This document shows positions 1,902 through 32,885 of a DNA stretch of 32,885 nucleotides, piece by piece. Made by a program: the position numbers and the translations under genes. Origin of the DNA: a virus (Duplodnaviria; Caudoviricetes); IMG/VR virus record IMGVR_UViG_3300048895_000065, positions 1 through 32,885 of that record; one strand, given 5' to 3'. The notes under the pieces were generated by a model. It searched no databases. It saw nothing but the letters and a program-made list of their open reading frames with translations, and was not told the origin of the DNA. The stretch's first letter is position 1; each line of letters starts with the position of its first letter.

Positions 1902-1905
<4 letters not shown>
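1303..1905 (-). CDS. minor tail protein, beta-sandwich/lectin-like
   Basis: Beta-rich 200 aa ending GSVALG...RLDDFYCG; ATGA-coupled to the tail fibre gene. Confidence 0.55.
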
Positions 1906-3691
<1,786 letters not shown>

Positions 3692-11661: not shown

Positions 11662-12318
11662 CTACGACGTGCTCGTCACGTTCTGGGCAGCGCACTCCGC
11701 CGTCGGCAGATCATCGCTGGTGGCCCACCATGCGCCCTCAGCGATGTCAGCGCCGTTCGGCGGACCGTCACCATACGGGCCCTCGCCCCAGTTCTCGTTC
11801 GTCTGCGAGTTCCCGACGAACTGCGGCTGCGCCGGACCCTCCTGGAACGTGTTCTGGCCGAGCACCCACGTCGTGCTGGGGAACACCCAGTGGAAGTACG
11901 GATAGGTGCCGTCCAACCCTGAGCCGGTCACGTTCTCGGCCCAGAACTCGAACGCGACAGTCGGAGCCTGCTCCTCACAGTCCAACGCGGACGGGAACGC
12001 CACACCGACCGTCACACCCGTGTCGGTGATCGCTGTTGCTCCCAGAAGGAACTGCTGCATTACGGGCTCCATCGCGGCAGCGTCGAACGTGATCTCCCAG
12101 AAATTGAACGTGTCCGGGTTCTTCCGCGACGCGATCTTGCAGCCGCAGCCGTTCCGCACCGAGAAGTTGTTCCCCGCTTCGTTGTTCGGGTTGACCTGGA
12201 TCGAGATCGGCTTGTCCGACACGTACGAGTTAGATCCTGCGATGACGTTGCCGTTCGAGTCGAGTCGCGTGATCCGAACGAGGCACGCTCCGAAACTCAC
12301 TCCACAGTTAAAAGCCAT
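11662..12318 (-). CDS. major tail protein
   Basis: VRITRLD..G, VRNGCG, AFEFW, YFHWVFP motifs; GGAGGAGG RBS. Confidence 0.75.
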   Translation of the reverse strand: MAFNCGVSFGACLVRITRLDSNGNVIAGSNSYVSDKPISIQVNPNNEAGNNFSVRNGCGCKIASRKNPDTFNFWEITFDAAAMEPVMQQFLLGATAITDTGVTVGVAFPSALDCEEQAPTVAFEFWAENVTGSGLDGTYPYFHWVFPSTTWVLGQNTFQEGPAQPQFVGNSQTNENWGEGPYGDGPPNGADIAEGAWWATSDDLPTAECAAQNVTSTS

Positions 12319-15087: not shown

Positions 15088-15714
15088 TCACCAGTCGTAG
15101 CGTGCAGCATCATCTGCAAGTTGGAGTGCTTGCCGCCATGATTCCGCCCACGGCACATGCGACCGTCCGCCCTTCACCGAAGGTTCTCCGTCGTCGTGCT
15201 GGACGATCGACGGCACCGACACCAGCACCTGCGTCCTCGTTGCACGCAGCCAGCGGGCCGCGTTCCCGTCATCAGCACGCGTCATCCCGCGCGCCGCAGC
15301 CGACCATTCGAGGAACGCATGAGCCACCTTGGTGGGCCACAGCACGCACACCAGCGGCATGAACGACGACAATGTCAGCGAGACATAGCGAACGTCAGGC
15401 TTCGCGCGTCTGACTAGCGCGGCGGTTGACGCCGGCATCGATCCCATGAACAGGCACACTGGGGAGTCGGGGTGGCGTTCAGCGATCCTTACTGTTGCGT
15501 CTGCGAATCCGGGTGTTGGGATGGCGTCATCCTGAACCACCAGCAGGTGTGAGGCATCACCGTCATATTGGAGGCAACGCCGGTAGTTAGCCCACGGGTC
15601 TGGTGGTTCAGATGAGTGAACCAATAGGTCAGCGGGGAGGGGCTGTAGTAGTTCAAGCAATCTCCCGTGAACGTGCGCCCTCGAGGGGTGTGCCTGGATG
15701 CGGCACTGGATCAC
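15088..15714 (-). CDS. GT-A-fold glycosyltransferase-like protein
   Basis: GTGA-coupled start; IQAHPSR, LLVVQDDA, ADD, VPSIVQH motifs as in actinophage glycosyltransferases. Confidence 0.6.
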   Translation of the reverse strand: MIQCRIQAHPSRAHVHGRLLELLQPLPADLLVHSSEPPDPWANYRRCLQYDGDASHLLVVQDDAIPTPGFADATVRIAERHPDSPVCLFMGSMPASTAALVRRAKPDVRYVSLTLSSFMPLVCVLWPTKVAHAFLEWSAAARGMTRADDGNAARWLRATRTQVLVSVPSIVQHDDGEPSVKGGRSHVPWAESWRQALQLADDAARYDW

Positions 15715-16457
15715 CGCGAAGCGGCAAGGGCGGCACGGCGGCGCAGGAAGTCCCGGTCGCGTTCCGTCGGCTCCGCTAGCGCGGCGGACAAAACCTTCTT
15801 CCGCTCTTGATAGTCGGCGGACGCGACCAAGGCGAACTCCTCCTCCGGAACCCAAGGAGGCAAGATCAGCGACTCAACCTCCACGTCACCTGCTGCCGAC
15901 GCGGCGAGAGCAACCTCTGCGCGAGGGATGGGGAACCCCGGCACCGGCACGGACAGGGCGGCGACTAGCTCGAGATGGCGGTTCAGGGAGCGCCAGTCTC
16001 CCGAGGGCGGGTTGGCGCGAAGGTCACGGAACCCCTCCTCGGAAATGTCAGAACGTACCGAACCGGACACCCAAATTCCGACGGAGCCATTCCGGGCTCG
16101 TACGAACGCGCCAACCGAGCCGGTATGGTCGTAGTGGTCAGCAGCCACCCGTGCAGAAGCTGATAGGGGAGCGTGTCCGGTGGCGTATGTGATCTTTCCG
16201 ACACGAACATCTCCTCCATCCGTCTCCAACGTGCCAAGGTGGTAGTGCTGGTAGTCGCTCTTCGAAGCGGGCGGCTGGACGCACTCAGCCACCGCGCCAT
16301 TCAGAAAGCCGGTATGGCAGGACCCCCACAACGCAAGATGGCCATAGACGCGGCCATTCTTCTCGAACGTCAGCGGCGTCGCAACGTCGGGCTCTTCCAT
16401 GTCGAACCATGCGCGCGGCGGACGGATCGGAAACATGCGCGGCATCTTATACCTCAT
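15711..16457 (-). CDS. capsid maturation protease
   Basis: RVYGHLALWGSCH, GIWVSG, SGDWR, LELVAAL.V.VPGFP motifs; upstream of the capsid genes. True start may be 16445 or 16436. Confidence 0.75.
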   Translation of the reverse strand: MRYKMPRMFPIRPPRAWFDMEEPDVATPLTFEKNGRVYGHLALWGSCHTGFLNGAVAECVQPPASKSDYQHYHLGTLETDGGDVRVGKITYATGHAPLSASARVAADHYDHTGSVGAFVRARNGSVGIWVSGSVRSDISEEGFRDLRANPPSGDWRSLNRHLELVAALSVPVPGFPIPRAEVALAASAAGDVEVESLILPPWVPEEEFALVASADYQERKKVLSAALAEPTERDRDFLRRRAALAASR

Positions 16458-16650
16458 TCAGGACGACAGCCAACCAATCGTCCTCCGCCATGATTTGCTC
16501 CAACCGCTTACGGCGACCCCTGGTCATCGGCCCGCCCACCCCAGGAGTCGGAGGTGTCGGAACACAGTTCTCCAACACAAGAAACCCCGAGCCGTCCTCC
16601 AGCTCGAACCGGCCCACACCATCCACTTCCTGGACGAGATAGCAGCTCAT
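16447..16650 (-). CDS. small hypothetical (probable virion) protein
   Basis: ATGA-coupled; tandem YLVQEVDG / FELEDGSG / LVLEN motif. Confidence 0.6.
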   Translation of the reverse strand: MSCYLVQEVDGVGRFELEDGSGFLVLENCVPTPPTPGVGGPMTRGRRKRLEQIMAEDDWLAVVLNEV

Positions 16651-17795
16651 GCCGAAACCTTATCCCTGAGTTTCGTGAATCCTTCGCCCCACAGAAGATC
16701 CAAATTGTCGAACCACCTTTCGTACGCCGGCCGAACAGCGTCCATCGAATAGCGGGAGAGCGCGTAGTCGCTCACGTCGACGCGGTCCAGTTCCATCGCC
16801 GCGACGGTTCCGTCGACGGCTTCTTGCAGCGTCTGGAACCGGTAGCCCGACACTCCTTCAACGACGGTGTCGGTGAACGCACCGAAGTCCGTCGTCACGA
16901 CAGGAGTGCCGCACATCATCGACTCAACGGCGACGCCGCCGAACGGCTCCGCATACAACGTCGGCACAAGGGTGACAGCGGCCTCTCCCATCAGCACAGC
17001 GCGGTCCTCGATCCCAACCGGACCCACGTATTCGAGATGCCGTGCGGCCCACTCGCCCTCCGTCGACCGCAAATACCCCGGCCTGTGCTCCACCGCTCCC
17101 GGACCCGCAACCACCAGCCGCATGTCCAACGCATCAGCGATGAAGCACGCTTCCGTGATGCCTTTCAGCGGGATCAGCCGTCCGACGAACAACAGGTAAT
17201 CGCCGCCGCCGCCGAGTGGGAGCTCGTCGGGGTCGAACTGGTTCGGGATCACCACGTCGCCCCGCCTGGGGAAGTTCTGCAACCCGAGTTCGCCGTACAC
17301 CATCGCCCGGTGAGACTGCGACTCGAACGCGGCGAACACAGGAGACAACCTGGGTTTCACGATGATGCCGCGGTAGCCGACCATGATCTCCGCGCCGATC
17401 ATCTCCGGAATCGCATCAGCCACAAGTCCCTGAGACTGGCCGGCGGAGATGCACAACAGATCGGTGGGCTGCATCCGCTGCCTGATTTCTCCGATGGCGC
17501 GGCCGTTCATCTCCTGCCACCACGGCTTGGACGAGTCCCATGAGAAGCCGCCGCGATCCAAATCGTTTTCGTCGGGTGCTCCGAACCACTCTTGTCGCCT
17601 TGCTTCGGTGAGGAGCGGGACGTGTTCGTCGCAGGGTGCTTCGTTCAGTTCGCCCGAATAAAGGATGACTTTGCGACCCTGACCCGTCATCATCCGGCAG
17701 AACTTCACGATCCTCTGCGTGTACGCGCACGTCGCGTAGTCAGACGTCGTTTGCGTATGGGGGAGTCCGAGGACGTGGAGGGTCTGGCTGCTCAC
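16647..17795 (-). CDS. glycosyltransferase family 4 (GT-B)
   Basis: LFVGRLIPLKG and EPFGGVAVESMMCGTPVV (EX7E) motifs; GTGA-coupled start. Confidence 0.9.
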   Translation of the reverse strand: MSSQTLHVLGLPHTQTTSDYATCAYTQRIVKFCRMMTGQGRKVILYSGELNEAPCDEHVPLLTEARRQEWFGAPDENDLDRGGFSWDSSKPWWQEMNGRAIGEIRQRMQPTDLLCISAGQSQGLVADAIPEMIGAEIMVGYRGIIVKPRLSPVFAAFESQSHRAMVYGELGLQNFPRRGDVVIPNQFDPDELPLGGGGDYLLFVGRLIPLKGITEACFIADALDMRLVVAGPGAVEHRPGYLRSTEGEWAARHLEYVGPVGIEDRAVLMGEAAVTLVPTLYAEPFGGVAVESMMCGTPVVTTDFGAFTDTVVEGVSGYRFQTLQEAVDGTVAAMELDRVDVSDYALSRYSMDAVRPAYERWFDNLDLLWGEGFTKLRDKVSA

Positions 17796-18385
17796 AGCAC
17801 GAACGTGCCGTAGTAAGCCAACCCGACTGCGCCGTTCTCGTTCACCATCTCGACCGTCCCCTCGCCGCCGATCCACTTGTTGAGCTCGTCGGCGTGGAGT
17901 GTGTGTGGGTGGCCGATGTTGGTTTCGGTTTCGACCCACTCGAACATCCGCAACATATGCGCACAGGCTTTGGCGGTCGCGATCACCTTCTCCGGGTCTT
18001 CGACGTGCTGCAACACGTTGTAGACCCAGCATTCCGACAGCTTCTCGTCATACGGGTTATTGAAGGCTTCTGCTGTTTCGACGTGGTAGAAGACACCCGC
18101 CGCCGCGTACCGTGCCGCGACCCATTCCGGGTACGGGCACGGGTCAACGACAGCACCCCAGCCGTTGATCGTTTTCAGCAGCAGCGACGTCGGTCCGCCG
18201 CCGAGGTCGAGTACCGAATATCCGTTGAGGTCGTAGACGGGCCACTTGCCATCCTGCGGTGCGTTTACCAATCCCATTCGGTGGGCGTAGGTGATCTGTT
18301 TCGCTTCCTCCCCGAACGTGTTCGTACACGTCCCCCACCACGATTGCTCCCAATCCTGGGCTGTTCCGTCCTCGTTCAGGCTCAC
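17792..18385 (-). CDS. class I SAM-dependent methyltransferase
   Basis: VLDLGGGP, VVDP, NVLQHVEDP motifs; GTGA-coupled start. Confidence 0.8.
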   Translation of the reverse strand: MSLNEDGTAQDWEQSWWGTCTNTFGEEAKQITYAHRMGLVNAPQDGKWPVYDLNGYSVLDLGGGPTSLLLKTINGWGAVVDPCPYPEWVAARYAAAGVFYHVETAEAFNNPYDEKLSECWVYNVLQHVEDPEKVIATAKACAHMLRMFEWVETETNIGHPHTLHADELNKWIGGEGTVEMVNENGAVGLAYYGTFVL

Positions 18386-18597
18386 CGTGTTCGCTCCATG
18401 TCCACGCCCGTCTTCCGCATCGGTGTCAAAGGATGCTCGTCCCTCCACGACGGACCGGTGCATGCCGGCTCGAGGCCGTCGCCGTCCGTACGAACGGAAT
18501 GATTGCACGTTGGGCAGACGTAGACGACGACGCCCCGCTTCACCGGCCCAAGCACAAGGTGGTCGAAGCGGGACGCCATGTAGTCGAGGTCGCCCAT
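18382..18597 (-). CDS. small putative zinc-binding protein
   Basis: CPTC...C...H in 71 aa; fills the gap exactly. Confidence 0.6.
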   Translation of the reverse strand: MGDLDYMASRFDHLVLGPVKRGVVVYVCPTCNHSVRTDGDGLEPACTGPSWRDEHPLTPMRKTGVDMERTR

Positions 18598-18939
18598 CTA
18601 GCTGAACGTGTAGCCGTACGCTGCCGCGACGACATCGGTGTTGTTCGCGAACCCTTCCCAGTAGTCGCTGTTCTGGACGGTGAACCAGCCGTTCAGGATG
18701 TACGGCACGTTGACGGTCAGGATGTAGGCGTCGAGGATCTTCTGAGCTGCCGTGTCCGCGGCCGTCGAGCCCTGCTCGACCGTGATCGCCCTTGCGGAGA
18801 CGCTGTTGAAGACGTTGGTGCGGACGACGCCGAACGTGAGTGCGCCAGCGGTGTTCTGGTAGCGCCATGTCGCGATGTTGGCCGCGCCGTTCCCCATCAC
18901 TTTCGCGGTGATCAGGGTGGCGGGCAAATATCCTGCCAT
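18598..18939 (-). CDS. hypothetical beta-rich (probable virion) protein
   Basis: AGGAGG RBS before MAGYLP; 113 aa rich in T/N/A/V. Confidence 0.65.
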   Translation of the reverse strand: MAGYLPATLITAKVMGNGAANIATWRYQNTAGALTFGVVRTNVFNSVSARAITVEQGSTAADTAAQKILDAYILTVNVPYILNGWFTVQNSDYWEGFANNTDVVAAAYGYTFS

Positions 18940-19118
18940 GCTTTTTCCTCCTTCGTGTTGTTCATGTCGGGCCACCCTTGCGGAACGGTGGCTTTCCTGT
19001 CGTTCCAGTAGAAATGACCGAACCCGGAGTCAACACCGGGCGACCGCGGCACATACACGGTAGGAGCCACCGCGAACTGGAGCAGCGGAATGATGTTGCG
19101 GGTGGAAGGGTTCGCCAT
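18912..19118 (-). CDS. hypothetical protein
   Basis: TGATG-coupled start MANPSTRN; 68 aa. Confidence 0.5.
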   Translation of the reverse strand: MANPSTRNIIPLLQFAVAPTVYVPRSPGVDSGFGHFYWNDRKATVPQGWPDMNNTKEEKAWQDICPPP

Positions 19119-19657
19119 CAGTATCCGCTCTCGGTGCGGGTGATGCCGCACAGCTCGAGACCGGGGGTGCCGTAGGTCGCGAACGTCGCGGTCGCGGGCA
19201 GCGCAAACGCCGACGCTTGGCTCAGAAGACCACCGACAGCGCCGTTCGCCGCCGTTGTCACTACATTCCCGAATGCTCTGTTCGCGTTCGATGTATCGCA
19301 GGCATAAGCGAAGTAGTACATTCCTGCCGGGAGAACGAACGGGACTGACGGTGTCACGTATTGCGGAACGCTCGTTCCTACCTGGGCTGTCGATCCGGTG
19401 CTGTAAAGCCTTGCGCCAGACGGCGAATAGATCCCGAAGTCGACGTTATTCCCGATGACCGATCCGTTACACCACCACACCCGTTTCACGGGATACTCCC
19501 AGGGGATGATCATCGGCATATACACCGCTCTGTTGGCCGACCATGTAATGGACACAGCCTGTGTTGATCCCTGCGCCAATCTGATGACCGGCAGTGGACC
19601 ATATGAAGAGAACGTCGAGAGGAAAAGGGGTAGTTGGTCGTCGGGCCAGTCGCTCAT
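19118..19657 (-). CDS. hypothetical beta-sandwich virion protein (paralog B)
   Basis: ATGA-coupled; aligns by eye with 19654..20187. Confidence 0.7.
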   Translation of the reverse strand: MSDWPDDQLPLFLSTFSSYGPLPVIRLAQGSTQAVSITWSANRAVYMPMIIPWEYPVKRVWWCNGSVIGNNVDFGIYSPSGARLYSTGSTAQVGTSVPQYVTPSVPFVLPAGMYYFAYACDTSNANRAFGNVVTTAANGAVGGLLSQASAFALPATATFATYGTPGLELCGITRTESGY

Positions 19658-20187
19658 ATCGTTGCCCCTGAGATGATCATTAGCGGCGTCGAACGTGCTG
19701 TGTAGGTCGCAAACGTGGCTGGGTTCGGAAGCGTCACAGCCCCTACTGCTTGCTGCTGAATACCAGCCGTCCGCGACGCAGCCGCGATCGTGGACACGGC
19801 GAGGAACGCAGCGGTGGTGTTGTCGACATTAATCGCCATGAAGTACGTTCCCGGCAAAAGCCAGGTGTCTGTGATATTGACTACCTGCAACCCGGCGGCA
19901 GCGACCGCTGTTGAACCAGCGGAAATGAGACGTGTCCCCTTCTCGTCGTAGATGCCGACGTCACAGTTGCCGCTCTGGGTGGTAACCTGGAAACCGATTT
20001 TCTGGGCCAGATACGGCCACGTCAACACGAAAGGACAGTAGACAGCCGTGTTCGCCGTCGTCCATAGGGTCGCAGTGCCAGCACTCGTCGTTGACCCGCG
20101 CATGTAGTCGCCAAGGCCGGTGTCCCCATAGTTAGATATGGAGTACGGCATCCTTCCGAACGAGCCTCTGGCGCTGAAGTCAGGCAT
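19654..20187 (-). CDS. hypothetical beta-sandwich virion protein (paralog A)
   Basis: TGATG-coupled; AN.AVY.P, D.GIY...G.RL.S.GST, LP..ATFATY shared with its neighbour. Confidence 0.7.
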   Translation of the reverse strand: MPDFSARGSFGRMPYSISNYGDTGLGDYMRGSTTSAGTATLWTTANTAVYCPFVLTWPYLAQKIGFQVTTQSGNCDVGIYDEKGTRLISAGSTAVAAAGLQVVNITDTWLLPGTYFMAINVDNTTAAFLAVSTIAAASRTAGIQQQAVGAVTLPNPATFATYTARSTPLMIISGATI

Positions 20188-20543
20188 CAGCTGTACTTGA
20201 GCACTTTCCAGTCGTAGTTCCTGACCGACCCCGTCGTCTGCTGCAACGTGGCGCGCAACGACCCGGCGTCGGTGAGCTCGTTCGAAATAGGCACCGAAAT
20301 AGCGATCCGCGGATAGGTGTTGTCGCCGCCTTGCGCGTCGATGTAGTTCTGGAAGTAGACGGTTCGCCTTGTGCCGCCGGTCAGGATGATCTGGTACCAG
20401 CGCAGCAGAAGCGTGTCACCCGACGCCATGTTGACGAGGTCGACGTGCAGCGTGAATGTGCCCGCGACGGCGATGTCGAGCAGCGTGTGTTCGGTGCCGA
20501 TCACGGAAGTCTGGGTGCCGGTGCCCTGGGCGGTAACAGCCAT
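20187..20543 (-). CDS. hypothetical beta-rich virion protein
   Basis: 118 aa, Thr-rich, immediately after the collagen gene. Confidence 0.65.
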   Translation of the reverse strand: MAVTAQGTGTQTSVIGTEHTLLDIAVAGTFTLHVDLVNMASGDTLLLRWYQIILTGGTRRTVYFQNYIDAQGGDNTYPRIAISVPISNELTDAGSLRATLQQTTGSVRNYDWKVLKYS

Positions 20544-20547
20544 TTGC

Positions 20548-22560
<2,013 letters not shown>

Positions 22561-22564
22561 ACTC

Positions 22565-23188
22565 TTACGTCTCGGTTACTTCCGCCGACGTGACCTCATG
22601 CGTCAATGGATCCCGCTCGAACGTCACCGTCTTCGTCCGCTCCGGCAACACCACGTTCACGTCGGCGGGCTGCACCGTGATCTGCGCGGCCGGGACGTTC
22701 ACGTTCGGAGCCTCGACCGTGATCGCGGGCTGCTCGACAGTGATCATCGGGGACAACGTCACAGGTGTCGGTTCAACCGTGATCGCTGGTGTGTGGACGT
22801 TGATGACGGGGTCTTTCGCGCCGATCGCTTCCAACGCGGCCACCAGAGCCTGCCTGTCCTGTGCCGCCTCTTGGCGGGCTATCGACTGAGACTCAGCCAT
22901 CGACGCCACCAACGATTTTTCCTGCTGATCCCGCGCCAACAGAGCGAGGATCTCGGCCATCACCGGAGACGTCGGCGGCACAGCAGCGACGACCGGCTCG
23001 AGAACCTCGTCGGGTTGCGCGTCGAGCTCGGCGTACATCGAAGCCACCCTCGCTTCGTTCGCGTACAGGGCGCGCTGATGCTTGATCGCGGACGCACGGT
23101 CGGGATGGCAGCCGCCGGGAACCGGATCAGCAGCGCCCTGCTTCACCACGCACCACTTGCCGTCCCTATTTTGCAACGACCAAGGCAT
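22565..23188 (-). CDS. head-associated hypothetical protein with P-x-I-T-V repeats
   Basis: AGGAGG RBS; N-terminal WCVVK...GCH...[10 protein letters not shown] module; C-terminal PAITVE repeats. Confidence 0.7.
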
Positions 23189-24947
23189 CTTGACCCTCCT
23201 TCAACTTCTCTATGGTTGCCACAAACCCTGACGGCAACTCTGGCATCTGCGGCTCGAACAACGTGCGGGCGGCGTACAGCTCGAGCATCTGCTTCAGCTT
23301 CGTCGCCTGCATCACCGGAACACCCCACTCAACAAGGAGCGCGCGGAAGCCGTCAGCGCCATCCTTCACCAAAGCAGCCGGATCATGGGTGTATTCGGAC
23401 TGGCCGATCACGGACGCAACCATCGACTTCTCAGAGCCGTTGCCGCAATCCTTGCACTTCAACTGTATCCGTGCGCCGGCGAGCTCGCGGCAGCGATGCA
23501 ACCCCATCTGCGCCGCACCAGCCACCAACGACGCCGACACCGACTCTCTCCTCGAAACACCGCTGTTGGTTCCCGGCTTCGGTGGCCCGTCTGAGGGGTT
23601 GGTTCCGATCTTCGCCTGCGCCGTCGGACCTGCCAATGGAGGCCCTCCTGGCCCTGTTTCGGTGAGGCGCTCAGTGGCGGGAGCACCGATGATCTGCGGA
23701 TCCCGCAGCTTGATCGCCAACCACTCGTCCTTCTCCTCACCCACCATCGCGTCCTTCTCGCCCCAACCCAACGCCATCCGCGTCGACTCGCCCGACAGAA
23801 GACCCGCGGCGTTCGCTTTGAGGGCATCTTCGGTGCGGTCTGGGCTGATGACGACCTGGGAGTCATCGAAACCGATCACGACGTTCTCCCAATCCGGATA
23901 GTCCTCGTCACGTAACGCAGGCCTCAAATACGCGTCCGAAAGAGCCGTCGCGAACTGCTCCGCCTTGTTGAACCCGAACATCCGCCACCGATCCAACTGC
24001 ACCTGACGTCCCGTCCAGTGGTTCGCGTTCGTGTAGCCCAACAGATCCTCCGGCGACATGTCGAGCGAAAGAGCCAGACGTTCGATCGCTTCCTTGCGGA
24101 GATCCCGCTCCATGTAATCCGTTGCCGGATCATGCGTCTTCATCCACTGAAGCTGATCCAAATACTCATAGTCCCCCTCGACCAGGAACGGGATCCTCGC
24201 TTCGACGGAGCCGGGGTTGTCGATTTGGGCGGCGACGTGTTCCATCCAGTCGGCCAGCCACGGGTTCTGCTCCGGATCCTCATCCATCCCCGCACTGAGA
24301 GGATTCGGTGAGAGCTGGGTAGGGATCTTGATGATCCCGTTCGTCAGACGCGTCAACGCCGTCGCGCGAACACCAAGCGTCAGGATCAACAGTTCCTCGC
24401 AGATGTCCTGCACGGCCCTCATCGGTGCGTCGGCCTGATCAGACCAGCGCGGTGACGGGGTCCAGAAGCGGTAGGCGACACCGACCTCGTCCGTCTCTTC
24501 CTGCTCCCAGTTCACCCGCACATACACACCGTCACCCAAAGGCTTAACTTCGTCTTTCCAGAGGAACTTCCACTTCGTGCCGTCCGCATAGCCGAACAGA
24601 ACACCCTCGCCGGTCAGGAACTGCAAGCGGCCGTAGTCGAACAGGAACTGCGACCGACCGCCGCCCGGGTCTTGCACCTGATTCAGGATGTCCACCGGAG
24701 GGCCACTGGTGATCCGTTCCAACGTTTGGTCCTCGAGCTGCTTCGCCGGGTAGAAGATGACCCTGGATATTTGGCGGGCGAGGAATTTGGAGGTGAAGTT
24801 GATCTCCCCGATCGTGTCGTAGTACGACATCGACCGGTACTGCCACGGTTGCGAGAGACGCTTCGAGTACGCCGTTTGTGGGGCCGTCAGTTTGACGGCA
24901 GACGCAGTTAGCGCCCTACCGGTCGAGCGCCTTTCGGGGAGAGCCAC
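23166..24947 (-). CDS. portal protein
   Basis: 593 aa; WQ....YYD.IGE, WTPSPR...AD.P, R.EAI.RLAL.LD..PE.LLG...NHW motifs of actinophage portals. Confidence 0.88.
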   Translation of the reverse strand: MALPERRSTGRALTASAVKLTAPQTAYSKRLSQPWQYRSMSYYDTIGEINFTSKFLARQISRVIFYPAKQLEDQTLERITSGPPVDILNQVQDPGGGRSQFLFDYGRLQFLTGEGVLFGYADGTKWKFLWKDEVKPLGDGVYVRVNWEQEETDEVGVAYRFWTPSPRWSDQADAPMRAVQDICEELLILTLGVRATALTRLTNGIIKIPTQLSPNPLSAGMDEDPEQNPWLADWMEHVAAQIDNPGSVEARIPFLVEGDYEYLDQLQWMKTHDPATDYMERDLRKEAIERLALSLDMSPEDLLGYTNANHWTGRQVQLDRWRMFGFNKAEQFATALSDAYLRPALRDEDYPDWENVVIGFDDSQVVISPDRTEDALKANAAGLLSGESTRMALGWGEKDAMVGEEKDEWLAIKLRDPQIIGAPATERLTETGPGGPPLAGPTAQAKIGTNPSDGPPKPGTNSGVSRRESVSASLVAGAAQMGLHRCRELAGARIQLKCKDCGNGSEKSMVASVIGQSEYTHDPAALVKDGADGFRALLVEWGVPVMQATKLKQMLELYAARTLFEPQMPELPSGFVATIEKLKEGQDALVVAK

Positions 24948-24953
24948 GCTTGG

Positions 24954-24998
24954 CTACTGACCCGGAACGGGCTTCTTCGGCTTACGGCAACCGCACAT
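24954..24998 (-). CDS. 14-aa micropeptide MCGCRKPKKPVPGQ
   Basis: Strong AGGAAAGGTG RBS; ends 6 nt before the portal start. Confidence 0.5.
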   Translation of the reverse strand: MCGCRKPKKPVPGQ

Positions 24999-25044
24999 GT
25001 GCCCACCTTTCCTAACGCGATGACTAGTCGCGCGGGAGCGTACA

Positions 25045-25680
25045 TCATCTGGTGGACAACACGTACTTGACGCCACGGCGGACGCGCGACATGTGCGACT
25101 CGGAAATCCCGTACATGGCGGCAAGTTCCTTGTTAGTGAACAACCCTTTCGGAACCGAACGAATCTCCATCACTTGCTTCTCGGTCAACTTCGTCCCCGA
25201 TCCGCGTTGAAGATTCTTCGCATGAGTCACGGGTTCAAGATGATCCGGGCGCATGCACTTCGTCTGTCGGCACAGATGGTCTAGGTGGAGTCCAGCAGGG
25301 ATCGGCCCGACTTCCTGCTCGTACATCGCGCGGTGGGCATACTGCGACCGTCCCGCAATGGTGACGCGCCCATAGCCCTTATTAGTCGTGAACCCCTTCA
25401 AGATCCAGCAGGGAGTCTGATGACCGCGATCCTCAACGAGGTAATCGTCCTCGCAGATGGGAGGACGACTCTTGGTTCGGTTGGCATGTCCAAGGATGAA
25501 CCGGAGCGGTTCGCCCCTAACCCATCCTTTGACCTTGTCTGTTTGGCGAGCCTTGGTCGTCTCCTGACCACACCCGCACTCACACAGTCCTACTCCGAAC
25601 TGAGAAGTCTCTGTGCTGCTATCACGCCCGCGTTCAACGCGAAGGGCATGCACACTACGAGAGTCGCCTCCGGAAGCCAT
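25045..25680 (-). CDS. HNH endonuclease with C-terminal HTH (start uncertain)
   Basis: CECGCG, CW...GYG, AHR..YE, LDHLCR...C.RPDHLEPVTH..N, and an LAAMYGISESHMSRV helix-turn-helix. Confidence 0.85.
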   Translation of the reverse strand: MASGGDSRSVHALRVERGRDSSTETSQFGVGLCECGCGQETTKARQTDKVKGWVRGEPLRFILGHANRTKSRPPICEDDYLVEDRGHQTPCWILKGFTTNKGYGRVTIAGRSQYAHRAMYEQEVGPIPAGLHLDHLCRQTKCMRPDHLEPVTHAKNLQRGSGTKLTEKQVMEIRSVPKGLFTNKELAAMYGISESHMSRVRRGVKYVLSTR

Positions 25681-25922
25681 AACCAGAACAAGTATACACC
25701 GAGAGACAGGTAAAACCCACAACAATATGGGCACGTCAGGAAGTTCGCCAACCCTTCGCGGTAGTCGTCCCCGGTGGCGTCTCCTTCTTCCCTCCATTTC
25801 GGAGACAGCCGCGTTATGTAACGGCGCGGCCGGTCCAGAATGTCGTCGAACGCCAGCAGGTGGAAGGTGCGCCACGCTGCTAGCGCGAGCAGCGTGGCGG
25901 ACCACCAGTCAGGCGTTCTCAC
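25590..25922 (-). CDS. DUF1360-like membrane protein
   Basis: LALAAWR..HL...D.I...PR and LTCPYC.G.. motifs with hydrophobic helices; GTGA-coupled start. Confidence 0.7.
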   Translation of the reverse strand: MRTPDWWSATLLALAAWRTFHLLAFDDILDRPRRYITRLSPKWREEGDATGDDYREGLANFLTCPYCCGFYLSLGVYLFWLWLPEATLVVCMPFALNAGVIAAQRLLSSE

Positions 25923-26041
25923 TTCTTGCCTTTCTTCTTTTTCTTCTTCGATTCTTTCGGCTGTTCGGGCCACACGTATCCGCACGGCCATGTCTGCGCG
26001 GGAGGGTGGACGGTGATCGTCGGCTCAGGCACGTTGGGCAC
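25919..26041 (-). CDS. 40-aa peptide with poly-lysine tail
   Basis: MPNVPEPTITVHPPAQTWPCGYVWPEQPKESKKKKKKGKK*; bridges the SAP and DUF1360 genes with overlaps; not in the ORF track. Confidence 0.55.
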   Translation of the reverse strand: MPNVPEPTITVHPPAQTWPCGYVWPEQPKESKKKKKKGKK

Positions 26042-26249
26042 CGGAACCTTCGACGCCGGCTAGCCTGTCGATCAGGTCGGACTTGCTGCCGGACGTCGGA
26101 AGGCCCCGCGACTCTGCGAGCTCCTGCAACGCGGCTTTGGTCATCTGGCTCGAGGACGTAACCGCCGTCGTCGGACGGGACTCGCCGTCGCCTCCGAGGC
26201 CGCGCGTCGACGGGCCCTCTGATTCGTTGCTGTACGTGACGGGCATCAT
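26025..26249 (-). CDS. SAP/HeH-domain protein
   Basis: MTKAALQELAESRGLPTSGSKSDLIDRL fits the SAP consensus; AAAGGAG RBS. Confidence 0.8.
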   Translation of the reverse strand: MMPVTYSNESEGPSTRGLGGDGESRPTTAVTSSSQMTKAALQELAESRGLPTSGSKSDLIDRLAGVEGSGAQRA

Positions 26250-26836
26250 TCGCTCCTTTGCGGTTGGACTGCCATGAAGCAGCCACGCGGGTTCTGCAAG
26301 AACACCCCTGTCATACCCAGATCACCGATCAGTTCACGCACGGTCTGGTGAACGGTGCCGTCCCGGTCGGACGTGTCATGGATCAACGCGACCGCTCCCG
26401 GTTGGGCCACCTCGCTCCAAGTCGTGATTTCTATGAAGCGGTAGTGGAAGTCGGAATCGAACACACACAGGTCGGCGGCGGCGAGCTGTTCCGCGGTCGG
26501 CATCGGGTTCGGTGAGAGTTGGGTGTTGTTGCGGAACCGCCAGAACTCCAACGGCCACATCATGTCGCGCCACTCATCATCCGACTCGAACGCAACCAAA
26601 CAGCCGTCGTTCAAAGCGGCCGCGATCGACCTCGTCATGTAGCCCTGACCAACCCCTGTTTCGATGACGAGACTAGGGTTCATCATGCGGACGAGTGTGC
26701 GGGCGAAGTCCATGACGGCGACTTCTGGGGATTGTCCGTTGTGGGCGAGCCACCCGGGTTGCGCCCACGGCGTGAACTCCTGCTCATCAACAACGAGTTG
26801 GGCCTGGTTCCAGGCGTTGTCGAGCGGCACCGTCAT
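26246..26836 (-). CDS. class I SAM-dependent (O-)methyltransferase-like protein
   Basis: VIETGVGQG, AFESD, DLCVFDSD, PGAVALIHD motifs; ATGA-coupled start. Confidence 0.75.
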   Translation of the reverse strand: MTVPLDNAWNQAQLVVDEQEFTPWAQPGWLAHNGQSPEVAVMDFARTLVRMMNPSLVIETGVGQGYMTRSIAAALNDGCLVAFESDDEWRDMMWPLEFWRFRNNTQLSPNPMPTAEQLAAADLCVFDSDFHYRFIEITTWSEVAQPGAVALIHDTSDRDGTVHQTVRELIGDLGMTGVFLQNPRGCFMAVQPQRSE

Positions 26837-27501
26837 TTCAGGTCCTCCGCCCACGGCCGCAACCCGTAGATGCGGCGTGCGCCCCACGACCGGTTGTAAT
26901 ACGGGTTCATGCGGTTCTCGTCCGTCGACACGCCGTAGATGCAGGGCTCCGCGACCCGGACCCACTTGTATCCCATCGCCGCCACCGCCGGAGACATGTA
27001 CGTGTCCTCACTGTGGCCCGGCGGAAGTTGCGTCCACGGGCGCTCGTCGTATCGCAATCCTTTGTCCCAGAGTTCGCGTCGGATGACGCAGTTGCCTCCG
27101 ACGTTCCACGGGATCGGGACGCCGCCATGTGATTCCTCGAGGTCGGTGCGGAGGCCGACCTGTCCGACCTTGGGATCTTGGAAGGCGGCGGCGAGGTGGT
27201 CGCACCAGCCGGGGTAGTAGGCCCAATCGTTGTCGGCACGGTGCAGATGGGTCGCCTCTTCGGGCGCGCGCTGCCATCCCTGATTGCAGGCATAACCGGG
27301 ATACATGTTGCGCGGCAGGAGCGTGACATGGAACATGTCCAATCCGGCGGCGTTCGCCAGCCACTTCACTGTTCCGTCCGTGGATCCGTTGTCCACGACG
27401 ACGAGGGTGAATGGAACCGTCACCGTTTCCAGATACGACTCCAACGATTTCTGGGTGGCGTACAGGCGGTCGTAGGTGATCATCACCGAATGAAGAATCA
27501 C
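26833..27501 (-). CDS. glycosyltransferase family 2
   Basis: ITYDR, VVVDNGSTDGT, ACNQG, RADND, SED motifs. Confidence 0.85.
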   Translation of the reverse strand: MILHSVMITYDRLYATQKSLESYLETVTVPFTLVVVDNGSTDGTVKWLANAAGLDMFHVTLLPRNMYPGYACNQGWQRAPEEATHLHRADNDWAYYPGWCDHLAAAFQDPKVGQVGLRTDLEESHGGVPIPWNVGGNCVIRRELWDKGLRYDERPWTQLPPGHSEDTYMSPAVAAMGYKWVRVAEPCIYGVSTDENRMNPYYNRSWGARRIYGLRPWAEDLK

Positions 27502-28052
27502 GACGCCATCCTCTCCGGAGGCTCACTGACATCAATCCCCGACAGCGCATTGTGTAAAGACAGCACCTGCGGCAGGAACACCACATTCGGATTATCTGTG
27601 AGCATGTTCTCCAACCACTCACCGTCCCCAGCGTAAAACTCAGGGATCCGGTAGCCGCCGATGAACGAACGTCGCAGACACACCTGGCCGGCGTCGACCT
27701 TGCCGACCACCATGTTCTCCGGACAAGCCTGCAACACAACCCCCGTTGTGCGCTTCTGGGTGACCACGATGGCGTCCGCGTAGGGGTTCTGCCGGTATGC
27801 CTTATATATACGTCGCAAATACGAGGGGTGCATGGTGGTGTCGTCGTCCAGGATGCAGACCCAGCCGTGTTCGATCCTGTCGAGCATGACGTTCTTCGGC
27901 TGTTGCCCGCCCACATGCTCCTTCGCGAGGTCTTCGTAGCGGTGCCACTCCACATCGACTTCGGGGGCGAGGTCGTTGGCGGCGTAGATGCTGTCCTCGA
28001 GCTGCGGGAGGTTGTCGGGGCGGCTGACGGCGGTCAGGATGTTGATCAGCAC
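27498..28052 (-). CDS. GT-A-fold glycosyltransferase-like protein
   Basis: ILTAVSR, WVCILDDD, VDAGQ, GDG motifs. Confidence 0.7.
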   Translation of the reverse strand: MLINILTAVSRPDNLPQLEDSIYAANDLAPEVDVEWHRYEDLAKEHVGGQQPKNVMLDRIEHGWVCILDDDTTMHPSYLRRIYKAYRQNPYADAIVVTQKRTTGVVLQACPENMVVGKVDAGQVCLRRSFIGGYRIPEFYAGDGEWLENMLTDNPNVVFLPQVLSLHNALSGIDVSEPPERMAS

Positions 28053-28630
28053 AGCACGACACCTATCCCTCCCCACTCCGCGTCCCGGTCAGCGACGATC
28101 TCGAACGTCAGATGGTCTTTCTTGATCTCTTCCCACAGACGGCCGACCTCGATCGACGGCCAAGCCGGATGCGTCAGGATGTCGTGGAGGCAGATCATGC
28201 CGCCGCTCTTGACCATCGGCCGGTAGTTCTCCCAGTCGGTCTTGACCTCTTTGTAGTAGTGGCCTGCGTCGATGAACACGAAGTCGTAGGGGCCGAGGCT
28301 TCCGATCTTGCTGATGATCCAGCGGTCAGCCGAGTCGCCCTCGAGGACGTGGAGCACCGTGTCATTCGCGTTCCAGCCGTCGTACAGTTCGCGGTTGTCG
28401 ACGCCGACCGCATACGAGTCCACCGTCACGATGCTCGCTCCAGGTCGCGCGGTGTTCTGCAACCAGTGGTACAGGGTGCCGCCGTGGTAGGTGCCGACCT
28501 CCAACACGTTTGACGGTTCGAGGAGGCGGTACAAGTTGAGCAGCACCTCGAACTCACGCTCCCATTGCAAGATCGGCACGGGCGCTGGGGGGCCGCATCC
28601 GGGCTGCTGCTCGACCATCGTTACTGCCAC
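28046..28630 (-). CDS. class I SAM-dependent methyltransferase (Methyltransf_24-like)
   Basis: VLEVGTYHGG, GDS, DFVFIDAGHYY..V..D, GG.I.LHD motifs. Confidence 0.85.
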   Translation of the reverse strand: MAVTMVEQQPGCGPPAPVPILQWEREFEVLLNLYRLLEPSNVLEVGTYHGGTLYHWLQNTARPGASIVTVDSYAVGVDNRELYDGWNANDTVLHVLEGDSADRWIISKIGSLGPYDFVFIDAGHYYKEVKTDWENYRPMVKSGGMICLHDILTHPAWPSIEVGRLWEEIKKDHLTFEIVADRDAEWGGIGVVLC

Positions 28631-29283
28631 AGTCTGCTCCTTTGTCTGAACAACCGGCCGTCCCTGCCGAACTGTCTCATCCCCAAACGGTAGGTGGCGT
28701 CAGGAGGGGCGGAAGAGAACGCAGGGTGCAGATGCTCAAGAACCGCGCGCCGGCAGAACGCCCATTCCTTCCGCCAAATCGCCGTAGCCGCCAACTCGCG
28801 GTCGGGGTAGTTGTGGTCGTACCCCTCATACATGATCGACCCAGGACCGTCCACAGTCCCCAACTCGTCAGCATACGAACGATGCACCGCCGGGTGCGGC
28901 GAGTAGATCCCAGCCACATCAGCACGCGGGTTCATGTCGGACGTGCCGATCACCCTGGCACCGGTCAGCTCGGCTTTCAGGAGGATGTGGGTGTCCCATT
29001 TCGGGTGGAAGTGAACATCATCGCCGCAGCACACGATCCAGTCCTCCGTCGTGTTGCGGTAGCCCAAATTGATCTTGGACGCCCAATCACCCATCCGCCG
29101 CCTGCTCTCGGTGACGAGGTGATCGACGCCTGCGTACTCGAGAGCCGCGAGCTCCTCCCGGTCCTCCGGGGACGCGACGAACAGGATGCGTGCTTTCGCG
29201 CCTGACTCCTCGAGCGACCGAACTAATGGCTCGACGCGGTGGGGGCGTTTGTATACCGGGACGACGATGACCAGGCTAGGCAA
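28621..29283 (-). CDS. glycosyltransferase family 2
   Basis: IVVPVYKR, KINLGY, CGDDV.F, Y.D.E, EHLHP motifs; TTG start overlapping the upstream stop region. Confidence 0.8.
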   Translation of the reverse strand: MPSLVIVVPVYKRPHRVEPLVRSLEESGAKARILFVASPEDREELAALEYAGVDHLVTESRRRMGDWASKINLGYRNTTEDWIVCCGDDVHFHPKWDTHILLKAELTGARVIGTSDMNPRADVAGIYSPHPAVHRSYADELGTVDGPGSIMYEGYDHNYPDRELAATAIWRKEWAFCRRAVLEHLHPAFSSAPPDATYRLGMRQFGRDGRLFRQRSRLWQ

Positions 29284-29953
29284 CGGGTGCTCCGATGTGC
29301 GCGAGAAGCTGCGACCCGATGAACTCTGTGTAGGCCGGCGGGATCGCTTCGGACAGCTCACGGCGGGTCATCCAGTCGATCCCCATCGCCGTCTGTGCCT
29401 CCTCGAGGTTGCGAGGCTTCCGCGAGTTGCCGCCTGCACCGTCGAGGCGATCGTAGATGCGTCTCGAGCCCGTGCCTGTGACGTCGATCGGCGCTGGGAA
29501 CTCCCGGTGGGAGCAGGGGGGCACCATCCCGACATCCCAGTTCGTCTCGAACAGCCGGTGCCGCCAAACGTTCAGCCCGAACGACGAGCCGCACAGTTTG
29601 AACGGCTGGATCAGGGGTGCGCCCGCCACGTTCTCGATCACATAGGGCTTACCGGTTTCGAGGAGCAGGTCGCGGACGGGCCCTACGAGGTCTGGGTATG
29701 AGGTATCGTGCAAAGATTTCGTTGTGGAGTACGCCTGGCAGGGAGGCGAGGCGTGGATGGCGTCGAAGTCGCTGATGCCGCCGAGGATCCAGAATCCTTC
29801 CCAGAACACCCTCATCACGTCCGCCCTCACGAACGTGAACGGATAGTTGGGCTGCGGGTTGATGTCGACACCGACCACGTCGAAGCCCGCGCGGTGGTAG
29901 CCCTCGCCCGCGCCGCCGGCACCGCAGAACAGGTCAAGCAGTCGTGGCCGCAT
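29276..29953 (-). CDS. DNA cytosine-C5 methyltransferase
   Basis: DLFCGAGG (motif I), ASPPCQ (IV), ENV (VI), RHRLFE (VIII), AIPPAY (X-like). Confidence 0.85.
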   Translation of the reverse strand: MRPRLLDLFCGAGGAGEGYHRAGFDVVGVDINPQPNYPFTFVRADVMRVFWEGFWILGGISDFDAIHASPPCQAYSTTKSLHDTSYPDLVGPVRDLLLETGKPYVIENVAGAPLIQPFKLCGSSFGLNVWRHRLFETNWDVGMVPPCSHREFPAPIDVTGTGSRRIYDRLDGAGGNSRKPRNLEEAQTAMGIDWMTRRELSEAIPPAYTEFIGSQLLAHIGAPVA

Positions 29954-30572
29954 ATGCCGCCTCCCATTCGTCAAGTTCTTGTGCGACCCGCCGATGGGCT
30001 GCGACCTGTGCTTTTTTGTCGCGCCACATTTGGCGGTGCATCGACTGTGGGTTCGCCCAGTACCGGTAGACGGCGTCGGGCACCTTCACGACCTCAGCGC
30101 CCACACGCGCGCACTTGCTCCAAAGACCCCAATCTTCCAAGCCGTGTTCGGCTTCGGGGAACCCGCCGACCTCCCAGAACAGATCCCGATGCACGACCGT
30201 GCCGATGACCAACCAGTTCGCCTGCCTCAGTGGCACCTCCCGGAAGAAAGAGGGTGGGCCGGGGGTCCGTCCTTGGCGGACGGTCTGGACAGCGGGCGTG
30301 AACAGGGTTCGCGCGTTGTCGGCGCGTTCGATCGCGGCTTCCATCGCCCCGATGTAGCCGGGGGCGAGTTCGTCGTCGGCGTCCAGATAAATGAGCCAGT
30401 CATAGTCGCCTCCGTAGGCGGCGGCTGCGTTACGTGACGACGAGATCGTTCCGTCTGGTTCGTGGATCGGGATGATCTCAACGTTCAAAGGGACAGACGG
30501 AAGCGCACGCTCATTAGCGAGACGCGCCCACTTCAAGTCTCCATAGGTGGAGACACAGACGCGGATGCTCAT
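29934..30572 (-). CDS. glycosyltransferase family 2
   Basis: SRNAAA, WLIYLDADD, VGGF, EDW.LW motifs. Confidence 0.85.
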   Translation of the reverse strand: MSIRVCVSTYGDLKWARLANERALPSVPLNVEIIPIHEPDGTISSSRNAAAAYGGDYDWLIYLDADDELAPGYIGAMEAAIERADNARTLFTPAVQTVRQGRTPGPPSFFREVPLRQANWLVIGTVVHRDLFWEVGGFPEAEHGLEDWGLWSKCARVGAEVVKVPDAVYRYWANPQSMHRQMWRDKKAQVAAHRRVAQELDEWEAAYAATTA

Positions 30573-30833: not shown

Positions 30834-30842
30834 ATGCTATCA
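30834..30842 (-). promoter_or_regulatory. putative extended -10 promoter for a leaderless transcript
   Basis: TGaTAGCAT, then 7 nt, then the ATG at 30826, with no Shine-Dalgarno. Confidence 0.45.
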
Positions 30843-32408: not shown

Positions 32409-32885
32409 ACTGCAGCTTTGGCGGATTCGGCTATCGAGATCAGCACATCACGGAACTCAATCGGCGTTTTGAGCGGCTCTGCGACACGACCTCTCCCCAT
32501 CGCCTGTCCGCTGTGGACGCCCGCGCCGATGACGTGTTCTCCGCGGGGATCTCCGGTCAGGAGCTCGGGAAGGTCGGTGTCAACCGCGTACAGCCATGTT
32601 CGCTTTCGTGCTTTGTGCCCGTAGGCGCTCTGCGACACCTCGATCGAGTATCCAGCGTCATCCATTGACGATGTCCATCCTCCCCGTGAGACGGGGCGAG
32701 GAAGACCGAAGTGGGTCCACGCGAGCGAGTAGGCGGGATGTTCTAGGACTCCTCCCCACTGGCGAACGGAGGCGAGTGCCGCCTGGAAGCAGCCTTCGTC
32801 GTCTCCGATCATCGCCCCCCAGCGTTTCTGGTTGACGGAGGCGAGCATCCCCCACCGTCCGCACGGAGGATGCGCAACGACAGGG
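32405..32885 (-). CDS. cytosine-methyltransferase-like protein (5' end outside the window)
   Basis: The frame stays open to the window edge and reads PVVAHPPCGRWG (PC motif), GVLEHPA, RKRTWLY, TP.EF. Confidence 0.6.
   Translation of the reverse strand, partial: PVVAHPPCGRWGMLASVNQKRWGAMIGDDEGCFQAALASVRQWGGVLEHPAYSLAWTHFGLPRPVSRGGWTSSMDDAGYSIEVSQSAYGHKARKRTWLYAVDTDLPELLTGDPRGEHVIGAGVHSGQAMGRGRVAEPLKTPIEFRDVLISIAESAKAAV

Follow-up and report, generated by a model that had tools for sequence, protein, structure and literature searches.

O-glycosylation of virions has been described for mycobacteriophages, with Che8 gp108-110 and Corndog gp35-38 as the proteins concerned (PMC12363180, PMC12619734, PMC11600133, PMC4351075). 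In these accounts, gp110 and gp38 are glycosyltransferases essential for capsid glycosylation (PMC12363180), and the glycans are located at the C-termini of capsid and tail-tube proteins (PMC12619734). A second group of related systems concerns collagen-like proteins. In Clostridioides difficile, the gene sgtA adjoins bclA3 (PMC7157674). Furthermore, Thr-rich collagen triplets were reported to be over-represented in viruses and bacteria, where stabilisation by glycosylation is presumed and the addition of the sugar before or after folding is stated to be unknown; the model peptide (Gly-Pro-Thr)10 folds only if galactosylated (PMC11923368). Neither a pairing of GXT collagens with GT4 glycosyltransferases nor a phage enzyme for collagen Thr glycosylation was found described in the literature.

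Gene order and origin of the window

The window, i.e., the whole stretch of 32,885 nucleotides analysed here, originates from an uncultured soil phage, and the record is approximately 70% complete. An earlier note on this DNA had reported six glycosyltransferase (GT)-like and three SAM methyltransferase (MT) genes amid the head genes. All of them were recovered, the GT-like genes comprising four GT2-like genes, one GT4 gene and one phrog_854 transferase gene. The nine enzyme genes and a collagen gene are encoded on the minus strand and occupy the slots originally assigned to them; the enzyme genes are co-oriented, mostly overlap by a few bases and belong to one structural operon. Probable gene starts, as deduced from stop/start overlaps, give shorter genes than the longest open reading frames. 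The structural genes serving as landmarks are as follows:

30840..32408, minus strand: terminase large subunit, upstream boundary (phrog_38, E 1.7e-67)
23166..24947, minus strand: portal (phrog_776, E 3.6e-75)
15711..16445, minus strand: head maturation protease (phrog_18402, E 2.4e-44)
13202..14971, minus strand: major capsid (hexamer-type) protein, ending in Asp (phrog_777)
11662..12318, minus strand: tail tube protein with Ser at the C-terminus (phrog_792)

In agreement with the first reading, two scans covering 30 and 42 window proteins detected no sugar-nucleotide synthesis genes. A contig from a soil sequencing run, which may represent the source sample, spans positions 16404-20393 with 0 differences. 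The lineage is large and uncultured, with at least 579 capsid relatives; a scan with the portal found no other loci. No host names came with the capsid homologues; the hosts known for distant isolates, among them a cyanobacterium, lead us to infer an actinobacterial host.

The tail-tube serine and the variable block between terminase and portal

Enzymes are designated below by their first coordinate. The gene nearest to the capsid gene encodes a GT of the mycobacteriophage type:

15088..15714, minus strand: Che8 gp110/Corndog gp38-family glycosyltransferase (no Pfam match; phrog_854 'glucosyltransferase', E 2.9e-16)

Profile comparison shows GT 15088 to be a homologue of Che8 gp110 and Corndog gp38 (hhalign 97.6% and 97.3%; HMM E 5e-19 and 4e-16, respectively). 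This homology was seen only at the profile level, as tblastn gave no match in isolated phages at 1e-5 and no sequence match was obtained among solved structures. A homologue is present in 30 of 31 capsid loci. Moreover, the tail tube protein ends in Ser in the window and in 34 of the 38 distinct C-termini of relatives, compared with 9/57 portals, 11/59 proteases and 8/41 capsids of the relatives. Eleven isolated phages possess a homologous tail tube, and the three with a terminal Ser are exactly the three encoding a phrog_854 gene (p 0.006 in a Fisher test that ignores relatedness, the tail-tube ends of the Gordonia phages Forza and GMA2, both with terminal Ser, being alike). Exceptions to this rule were observed in two records, one featuring the Ser but no gp110-like gene (G040) and one featuring the gene and a terminal Thr (G055). 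Che8 gp6 and gp11 as well as Corndog gp41 and gp49 all carry a C-terminal Ser. The major capsid protein of the window ends in Asp and thus is not a C-terminal Ser acceptor; the C-terminal residues of the pentamer-like protein are Ser-Thr.

Further GT and MT genes are clustered between the terminase and portal genes:

29934..30572, minus strand: GT2-like glycosyltransferase, variable block (PF00535, E 4.8e-5; DADD motif)
29276..29953, minus strand: C5-cytosine DNA methyltransferase-like (PF00145, E 1.1e-5; phrog_363, E 1e-41; PPCQ and ENV motifs)
28621..29283, minus strand: GT2-like glycosyltransferase, most conserved member of the block (PF00535, E 9.3e-8)
28046..28630, minus strand: SAM methyltransferase (Methyltransf_24, E 3.8e-15; rhamnosyl O-methyltransferase/CmcI, E 1e-8)
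27498..28052, minus strand: weak GT2-like glycosyltransferase (PF00535, E 3.2e-4, below the curated cut-off; phrog_14775, E 5.8e-4)
26833..27501, minus strand: GT2-like glycosyltransferase, variable block (PF00535, E 1.2e-11)
26246..26836, minus strand: SAM methyltransferase-like (Methyltransf_24, E 1.2e-4, below the cut-off; Corndog gp35, E 0.005)

MT 28046 is a probable sugar O-methyltransferase as judged from its profile matches, that to NF045824 (E 7.5e-5) being far below the cut-off. The C5-cytosine DNA methyltransferase-like gene, missed in the first reading, is probably unrelated to glycans; its homologues are located outside the block in three relatives. Contents of the block differ among the 10 relatives scanned and include GT2, GT6, GT7, FkbM, de-N-acetylase, epimerase, and dehydratase or dehydrogenase genes. 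Two relatives kept the GT2 homologues and contain only 2 and 4 matches to the collagen pattern.

Co-occurrence of GT4 and threonine-rich collagens

The fibre module and a further collagen gene comprise the following features:

20548..22560, minus strand: GXT collagen-like fibre, 670 aa (149 G-X-Y triplets in 8 runs, residues 44-503)
18382..20543, minus strand: small fibre-module genes (20187, paralogues 19654 and 19118, 18598, 18382), assigned by neighbourhood
17792..18385, minus strand: class I SAM methyltransferase (no Pfam match; class I SAM methyltransferases as fold matches of the AlphaFold model, pLDDT 90.5)
16647..17795, minus strand: GT4 (GT-B) glycosyltransferase (PF00534, E 1.3e-15; EPFGGVAVE motif intact; pLDDT 95.9)
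1902..2657, minus strand: short GXT collagen in the tail module (29 triplets, 25 of them GXT)

The 670-aa collagen noted previously is real, with Thr at position Y in 102 of its 149 triplets and Pro at position X in only 4. Matches of its C-terminal domain are mostly viral, in unnamed clusters at 0.95-0.96, and the protein contains no hydrophobic membrane stretch. The short collagen, located outside the interval noted earlier, is a possible second substrate of GT4. Among the small genes, homologues of 18598 occur alongside collagen and GT4 in four other records, and homologues of 19654 flank collagens in another. In one record, two ORFs upstream of a 20187 homologue appear GT2-like and MT-like by eye and have no Pfam match at 0.01.

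GT4 16647 features both a GT-B fold and the EX7E motif. Its nearest solved folds are tll1591 and tetrahydrobiopterin glucosyltransferase (7fga, 9v0w, 5zer; E 1e-18 to 1e-15, TM ~0.65-0.7). MT 17792 shows a Rossmann-type fold with a glycine-rich motif I; its homologue is fused to GT4 in three loci (L116, L120, L192) and is present in only 20 of 80 viral GT4 loci.

Of the 79 viral loci of the GT4 subfamily, 57 had a GXT collagen at a distance of no more than 10 kb; many of the other 22 loci are short. Among representative viral loci of at least 15 kb, 37/42 GT4 loci contained a GXT collagen versus 0/31 for GT 28621, the remaining controls giving 0/6, 10/25 and 2/7. Considering all viral loci, GT 28621 was near a GXT collagen (within 10 kb) in 0/80 and GT 26833 in 0/20, although these GT2 proximity controls are partly positional since the GT2 block is usually far from the fibre genes. 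Cellular matches devoid of the N-terminal domain were near a GXT collagen in 0/35 cases. At the level of whole records, eight contained GT4 and collagen, none GT4 only, six collagen only and 29 neither (p 2e-5, Fisher test ignoring relatedness), and GT4 never occurred without a long GXT collagen in 45 related records. The GT4 tree (FastTree, 85 rows) was computed after removal of collagen-negative loci below 15 kb, matches below 300 aa and duplicates.

In five of the six collagen-only records a GT2 gene lies beside the collagen, and the one tested matches GmaR (E 4.8e-12) and SunS. The corresponding profile gave no match in the record analysed here. Furthermore, the collagen-x-MT-GT4 cassette is identical in order in the cyanomyovirus ACG-2014f, a Synechococcus phage with gp015 as the collagen and gp017-gp018 as further cassette members. 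As far as gene content is concerned, only GT4 and, more loosely, MT 17792 co-segregate with the collagen. The co-occurrence expected across relatives holds for GT4, whereas neither GT 15088 nor the GT2 block shows it.

These data indicate that GT4 16647 is likely a collagen Thr O-glycosyltransferase. GT4 enzymes retain the anomeric configuration, and an alpha linkage is therefore predicted for the product. As an alternative, the substrate of the enzymes may be phage DNA, a small molecule or the glycans of the host surface; the link to collagen would then reflect hitch-hiking within a variable island for host recognition. Phage genome papers usually interpret such enzymes along these lines, and only 15 of 43 cellular GT4 members have a nearby collagen, a Nocardia clade and some others being without. 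Moreover, the C5-cytosine DNA methyltransferase-like gene lies within the same block as the GT2s, so that position alone is no proof. However, no link to collagen is seen for the remaining GTs of these islands, and the collagens near GT4 are biased towards Thr (at least 40% Thr at Y in 83/97) and often directly adjacent. None of the enzymes contains a membrane stretch, base-modification genes were absent among the window proteins scanned, and the GT 15088 family is reported as virion-glycosylating. This alternative as a whole is considered unlikely. Among other Thr-rich ORFs near collagen-less GT4s, nothing systematic was found.

GT4 might also act as an extender, adding a second sugar to collagen Thr primed by a host enzyme, GT 15088 or a GT2. 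The closest structures of GT4 take sugar or small-molecule hydroxyls. Furthermore, in L192 a GT4-MT fusion and a GT2-TPR gene lie together beside one collagen; GT4 and GT2 are therefore not exclusive everywhere, and GT4 could be an extender. In contrast, GT4 is found in 10 of the related records and the GmaR/SunS-like GT2 in 7, with no record having both at full length, so that one enzyme stands in for the other in this lineage. In Bacillota genomes collagen and GT4 form adjacent gene pairs, the neighbours having been partly scanned. An extender role is thus rated as quite improbable, and direct transfer to collagen Thr is preferred.

Finally, the earlier note proposed a single methylated oligosaccharide on collagen Thr, assembled by the six GTs and three MTs together, which appears very unlikely. 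The shared operon and the many Thr residues on offer agree with it, and the GT2 block may cross-extend the fibre sugar in this phage. However, GT 15088 follows the tail-tube Ser, and the collagen-GT4 cassette also occurs in unrelated phages and bacteria. Moreover, both GT 15088 and the GT2 block are retained in near-complete relatives that lack a long GXT collagen (10 of the 16 records that are at least 90% complete and contain the GT 15088 family). Independent loss of GTs and collagens, which had been named as evidence against a common glycan, was observed for GT 15088 as well as for the GT2 block between terminase and portal. The comparative data thus lend good support to two parts of the original glycan-coat idea, namely glycosylation of the virion and of a GXT collagen, but not to a single glycan made by all enzymes.

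Two proposed glycosylation kits and their relation to known systems

Based on gene content and comparative data, the six GT-like and three MT-like genes are proposed to represent two independent virion O-glycosylation kits, targeting the tail tube and the collagen, respectively; we regard this reading as moderately probable. In the first kit, which belongs to the lineage core and is an already known kind of system, GT 15088 would likely attach the first sugar to the conserved C-terminal Ser of the tail tube. The four GT2s and two MTs of the block, whose variability is observed, may extend and O-methylate this glycan on the tail tube as the predicted target, and the block would constitute a hypervariable, serotype-like region. 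In the second kit, a mobile fibre cassette, GT4 16647 would likely act in the host cytoplasm and move a sugar onto Y-position Thr of one or both GXT collagens, and MT 17792 would methylate this sugar in lineages keeping the MT. GT4 would perhaps stabilise the proline-poor collagen in this way; extrapolating from model-peptide work, Thr glycosylation may replace hydroxyproline in stabilising a nearly proline-free triple helix. Sugar-nucleotide donors would be supplied by the host or encoded in the missing part of the genome.

More tentatively, and with rather more doubt than confidence, the GT4 16647 family may represent widespread, undescribed retaining collagen-threonine O-glycosyltransferases that play a prolyl-hydroxylase-like role for Pro-poor viral and bacterial GXT collagens, are interchangeable with GmaR/SunS-like GT2 enzymes and act beside a separate tail-tube kit. 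In that case, virions would carry two independently evolving sugar coats. The results extend gp110-type virion glycosylation to a large uncultured lineage, and the terminal Ser of the tail tube provides a simple sequence predictor for it. They also suggest that many phage GTs labelled as DNA or host-surface modifiers in fact act on the virion. GT4 is small and soluble, and its predicted substrate is a defined repeat, which makes collagen Thr glycosylation directly testable; the enzyme could serve glyco-collagen biomaterials.

In comparison with Che8 and Corndog, the window shares a GT of the gp110/gp38 family, a tail tube with terminal Ser, and GTs and an O-methyltransferase among the head genes. 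It differs in the capsid ending in Asp, in a hexamer/pentamer-type head and in the presence of a second, collagen-linked kit; the accessory GT2s and MTs match gp108/109 and gp35-37 only weakly in pairwise comparison (E 7e-4 and 5e-3). As for SgtA/BclA3 and Bacillus BclA, a GT gene adjoins a GXT collagen whose Thr residues are the predicted acceptors. SgtA is a GT2-type beta-O-GlcNAc transferase, whereas the enzyme of the window is a GT-B GT4; moreover, the triplets are Pro-poor GAT/GVT rather than GPT, and the collagen is a phage fibre encoded in a head operon, not a spore exosporium protein, and lacks a membrane segment. GmaR exhibits flagellin O-GlcNAc activity, and the family name of SunS is peptide S-glycosyltransferase. 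Relatives of GmaR and SunS (PDB 22ao, 7msp) lie beside the collagen in seven related phage records without GT4 and are absent from the window. The alpha-1,2-glucosyltransferase tll1591 and tetrahydrobiopterin glucosyltransferase, sharing 16-18% identity with GT4 16647, use small-molecule acceptors and are not protein GTs.

Structural operon and enzyme genes

The window represents the entire linear virus record (32,885 bases), which is approximately 70% complete. On its minus strand, it encodes the structural operon of a long-tailed phage comprising terminase, portal, protease, capsid, second head protein, tail tube, adaptor, tape measure, Dit, tail proteins and lysis genes. The capsid has distant relatives among the 'major capsid hexamer' proteins of Gordonia, Microbacterium and Mycobacterium phages (231 records), which suggests an actinobacterial host. 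All three sequencing runs containing at least half of the window's sampled words originated from soil metagenomes, and one soil-run contig matched positions 16404-20393 without differences; this run may be the source sample.

The glycosyltransferase (GT), methyltransferase (MT) and collagen genes called in an earlier note were all confirmed (enzymes are named by lowest coordinate):

15088, minus strand, GT matching phrog_854
16647, minus strand, GT4 with intact GT4 motif
17792, minus strand, MT with class I SAM fold (structure-based)
20548-22560, minus strand, GXT collagen fibre (670 aa); of its 149 triplets, 102 have Thr at Y and 4 have Pro at X
26246, minus strand, MT (weak match)
27498, minus strand, GT2 just below the Pfam cut-off, which is passed by three further GT2s (26833, 28621 and 29934)
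28046, minus strand, MT matching Methyltransf_24 and rhamnosyl O-methyltransferase/CmcI

No membrane-length hydrophobic stretch was found in any enzyme or in the collagen. In addition to the genes noted earlier, the GT2 block contains a C5 DNA methyltransferase-like gene, and the tail module encodes another GXT collagen. The methyltransferase-like gene (29276-29953) is short and overlaps its GT neighbours; a truncated ORF at the window end (32405-32884, phrog_12600) carries a similar PPC motif. Furthermore, the GT block ends with a gene for a tiny SAP-domain protein (26025-26249, E 6e-11), and an HNH endonuclease (25045-25653) is flanked by DUF1360 and the portal; a joint skipping 25048-25729 in one run weakly hints at a variant lacking the HNH gene. 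The first 45 residues of the 22565-23188 product resemble the N-terminus of the relatives' long protease proteins, and a protease-type gene region thus appears to have been split by the fibre cassette.

GT 15088, the tail-tube serine and the variable block

A GT 15088 homologue was located in the protease-capsid interval of 30 of 31 capsid-related loci. The family profile matched Che8 gp110 (E 5e-19, hhalign 97.6%) and Corndog gp38 (E 4e-16, 97.3%). In these phages, the glycosylated C-terminal site is reportedly a serine, and terminal Ser was confirmed in the sequences of Che8 gp6 and gp11 and of Corndog gp41 and gp49. The window's tail tube, the predicted acceptor, likewise has a terminal Ser, which is shared by 34 of 38 distinct C-termini of relatives, the preceding residues being variable. 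Terminal Ser is rarer in the control proteins, i.e., portals (9/57), proteases (11/59) and capsids (8/41). As outside control, 11 isolated phages whose tail tubes are homologous were taken from capsid and tail-tube searches (the tail tube was matched by 80 records) and selected for host diversity before their ends were seen. Three of them (Forza, GMA2 and phiAsp2) possess Ser-ended tail tubes, and exactly the same three carry a phrog_854 gene (p 0.006, Forza and GMA2 probably being non-independent). Exceptions among metagenomic records are G040, featuring Ser without the gene, and G055, encoding the gene together with a terminal Thr. Forza (L400), GMA2 (L404) and phiAsp2 (L403) are cultured Gordonia/Actinoplanes phages and hence represent ready test cases for virion glycosylation.

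Ten relatives were covered in full, and 110 of their 121 unassigned structural-region ORFs were scanned. Their terminase-portal gene sets differ, including GT2, GT6, GT7, DXD-type GT, FkbM and other methyltransferases, as well as de-N-acetylases, acetyltransferases, NDP-sugar epimerases, GDP-mannose dehydratase and UDP-glucose dehydrogenase; this interval behaves like a serotype locus. The earlier proposal of a single glycan system on the collagen is not well supported, since the 15088 family and the variable block persist where the long GXT collagen is absent: ten of 16 records carrying the 15088 family (at least 90% complete) show at most nine GXT-GXT-G pattern matches each, and homologues of the window's GT2s are retained in the related records G001 and G002. 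Based on co-retention and the Che8/Corndog precedent, the GT2 block may extend the glycan started by GT 15088.

GT4 16647 and the collagen fibre

Following a GT4 homologue search with an alignment of 70 sequences, the best 80 of 390 viral loci and the best 80 of at least 409 cellular matches were fetched. GXT collagens (at least 15 triplets, Thr at Y at least 40%) within 10 kb were recorded for 57 of 79 viral and 15 of 43 cellular subfamily members in these sets, and for 0 of 35 cellular matches lacking the N-terminal domain (best 80 of at least 409). Once loci had been clustered (70% identity) and those shorter than 15 kb removed, collagen was nearby for GT4 in 37/42, GT 28621 in 0/31, GT 26833 in 0/6, GT 15088 in 10/25 and the capsid in 2/7 cases, the GT2 controls being partly positional. 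A whole-record test was therefore performed on 45 records of at least 25 kb, picked via GT 15088 (30), GT 28621 (14) and GT4 (1); the GT4-picked record was dropped and two near-identical ones were merged. GT4 and collagen occurred together in eight, GT4 alone in none, collagen alone in six and neither in 29 (p 2e-5, relatedness ignored); for records at least 90% complete, the counts were 5, 0, 1 and 13 (p 5e-4, relatedness ignored). Co-segregation with collagens was observed for GT4 16647 and, more loosely, for MT 17792.

GT4 16647 and MT 17792 follow another pattern than the variable block. Their homologues accompany a long GXT collagen at a different site, the tail tube-adaptor interval, in G003, G008, G010 and L067, and the order collagen, small gene, MT, GT4 recurs in cyanomyovirus ACG-2014f, which is unrelated. 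L001, the closest relative (90% identity in the capsid), encodes neither gene at the window's position; here (L001:1-925), the small fibre genes are followed by no MT-GT4 pair, different GT-like and MT-like ORFs lie upstream, and the contig stops too early for any collagen to be visible. Collagen association is scattered across the GT4 tree (69/85 rows). A Nocardia clade (L147, L150, L152-L154, L156) lacks GXT collagen within 10 kb. One subfamily member, P0109, is fused to an N-terminal domain of approximately 240 aa without Pfam hit, resembling a DXD-type GT by eye.

Five of six collagen-only records were examined, the sixth being 48% complete; all five encode a GT2 no more than about 2 kb away from a collagen, and two additional records feature a GT2 after a short tail collagen. 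The one collagen-side GT2 compared with solved structures matched GmaR (E 4.8e-12) and SunS (E 2.5e-6), and three of the seven gave hits to the model for SunS peptide glycosyltransferase, with scores far under the cut-off. Full-length matches of a profile of these seven among 46 records were, by construction, only those seven; none was found in the ten GT4 records, the window or the 27 remaining collagen-poor records. Of the lineage's collagen-rich records, 15 of 16 encode GT4 or GT2 and none both. Since GT4 and the GmaR/SunS-related GT2 replace each other beside collagens in this lineage, GT4, as judged from sequence, occupies the slot of a peptide-glycosyltransferase relative.

GT4 would transfer a sugar, probably in alpha linkage, onto Y-position Thr of the collagen in the cytoplasm; methylation by MT 17792 would follow, and glycosylation may stabilise the fibre. 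MT-GT4 fusions were detected in three loci. According to excerpts of PMC11923368, viral and bacterial collagens contain anomalously many Thr triplets, and (Gly-Pro-Thr)10 is a random coil unless galactosylated, the timing of glycosylation being given as unknown; an excerpt of PMC8968730 names Thr as the commonest Y residue of bacterial collagens. Against a role on collagen Thr, the nearest structures of GT4 are small-molecule glucosyltransferases, and Nocardia GT4 members occur without collagens; against MT 17792 as regular partner, it is present in only 20 of 80 viral GT4 loci (best 80 of 390). Alternatively, GT4 may extend the collagen sugar instead of priming it, which fits locus L192 carrying both GT4-MT and GT2-TPR.

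Comparison with known systems

A phage GT4-collagen pairing was not described in the literature searched, mostly excluding subscription papers, nor in the excerpts available of PMC10202952, PMC7029224, PMC12801897, PMC11600133, PMC11256854 and PMC13188886. In bacteria, collagen threonines receive GlcNAc from SgtA, whose gene lies directly upstream of bclA3 (excerpt of PMC7157674). A Bacillota clade of the GT4 subfamily shows adjacent chromosomal GXT collagen and GT4 genes (L165, L167, L168, L175, L177), one pair being located beside the sporulation gene yqfD and a sigma factor; these pairs are candidates for a non-SgtA route to spore-collagen glycosylation.

The GT 15088 system belongs to an already known kind. 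Che8 gp110 and Corndog gp38 are GTs essential for capsid glycosylation (PMC12363180, in part, citing Freeman et al. 2023), and the glycans reside at the C-termini of capsid and tail tube (PMC12619734, in part, citing Freeman et al. 2023). The likeness is only partial, because the window's capsid ends in Asp, in contrast to the Ser-ended Che8 and Corndog proteins. GT/MT clusters in head operons are likewise known, since Corndog carries an O-methyltransferase and three GTs in the portal-protease interval (excerpt of PMC4351075).
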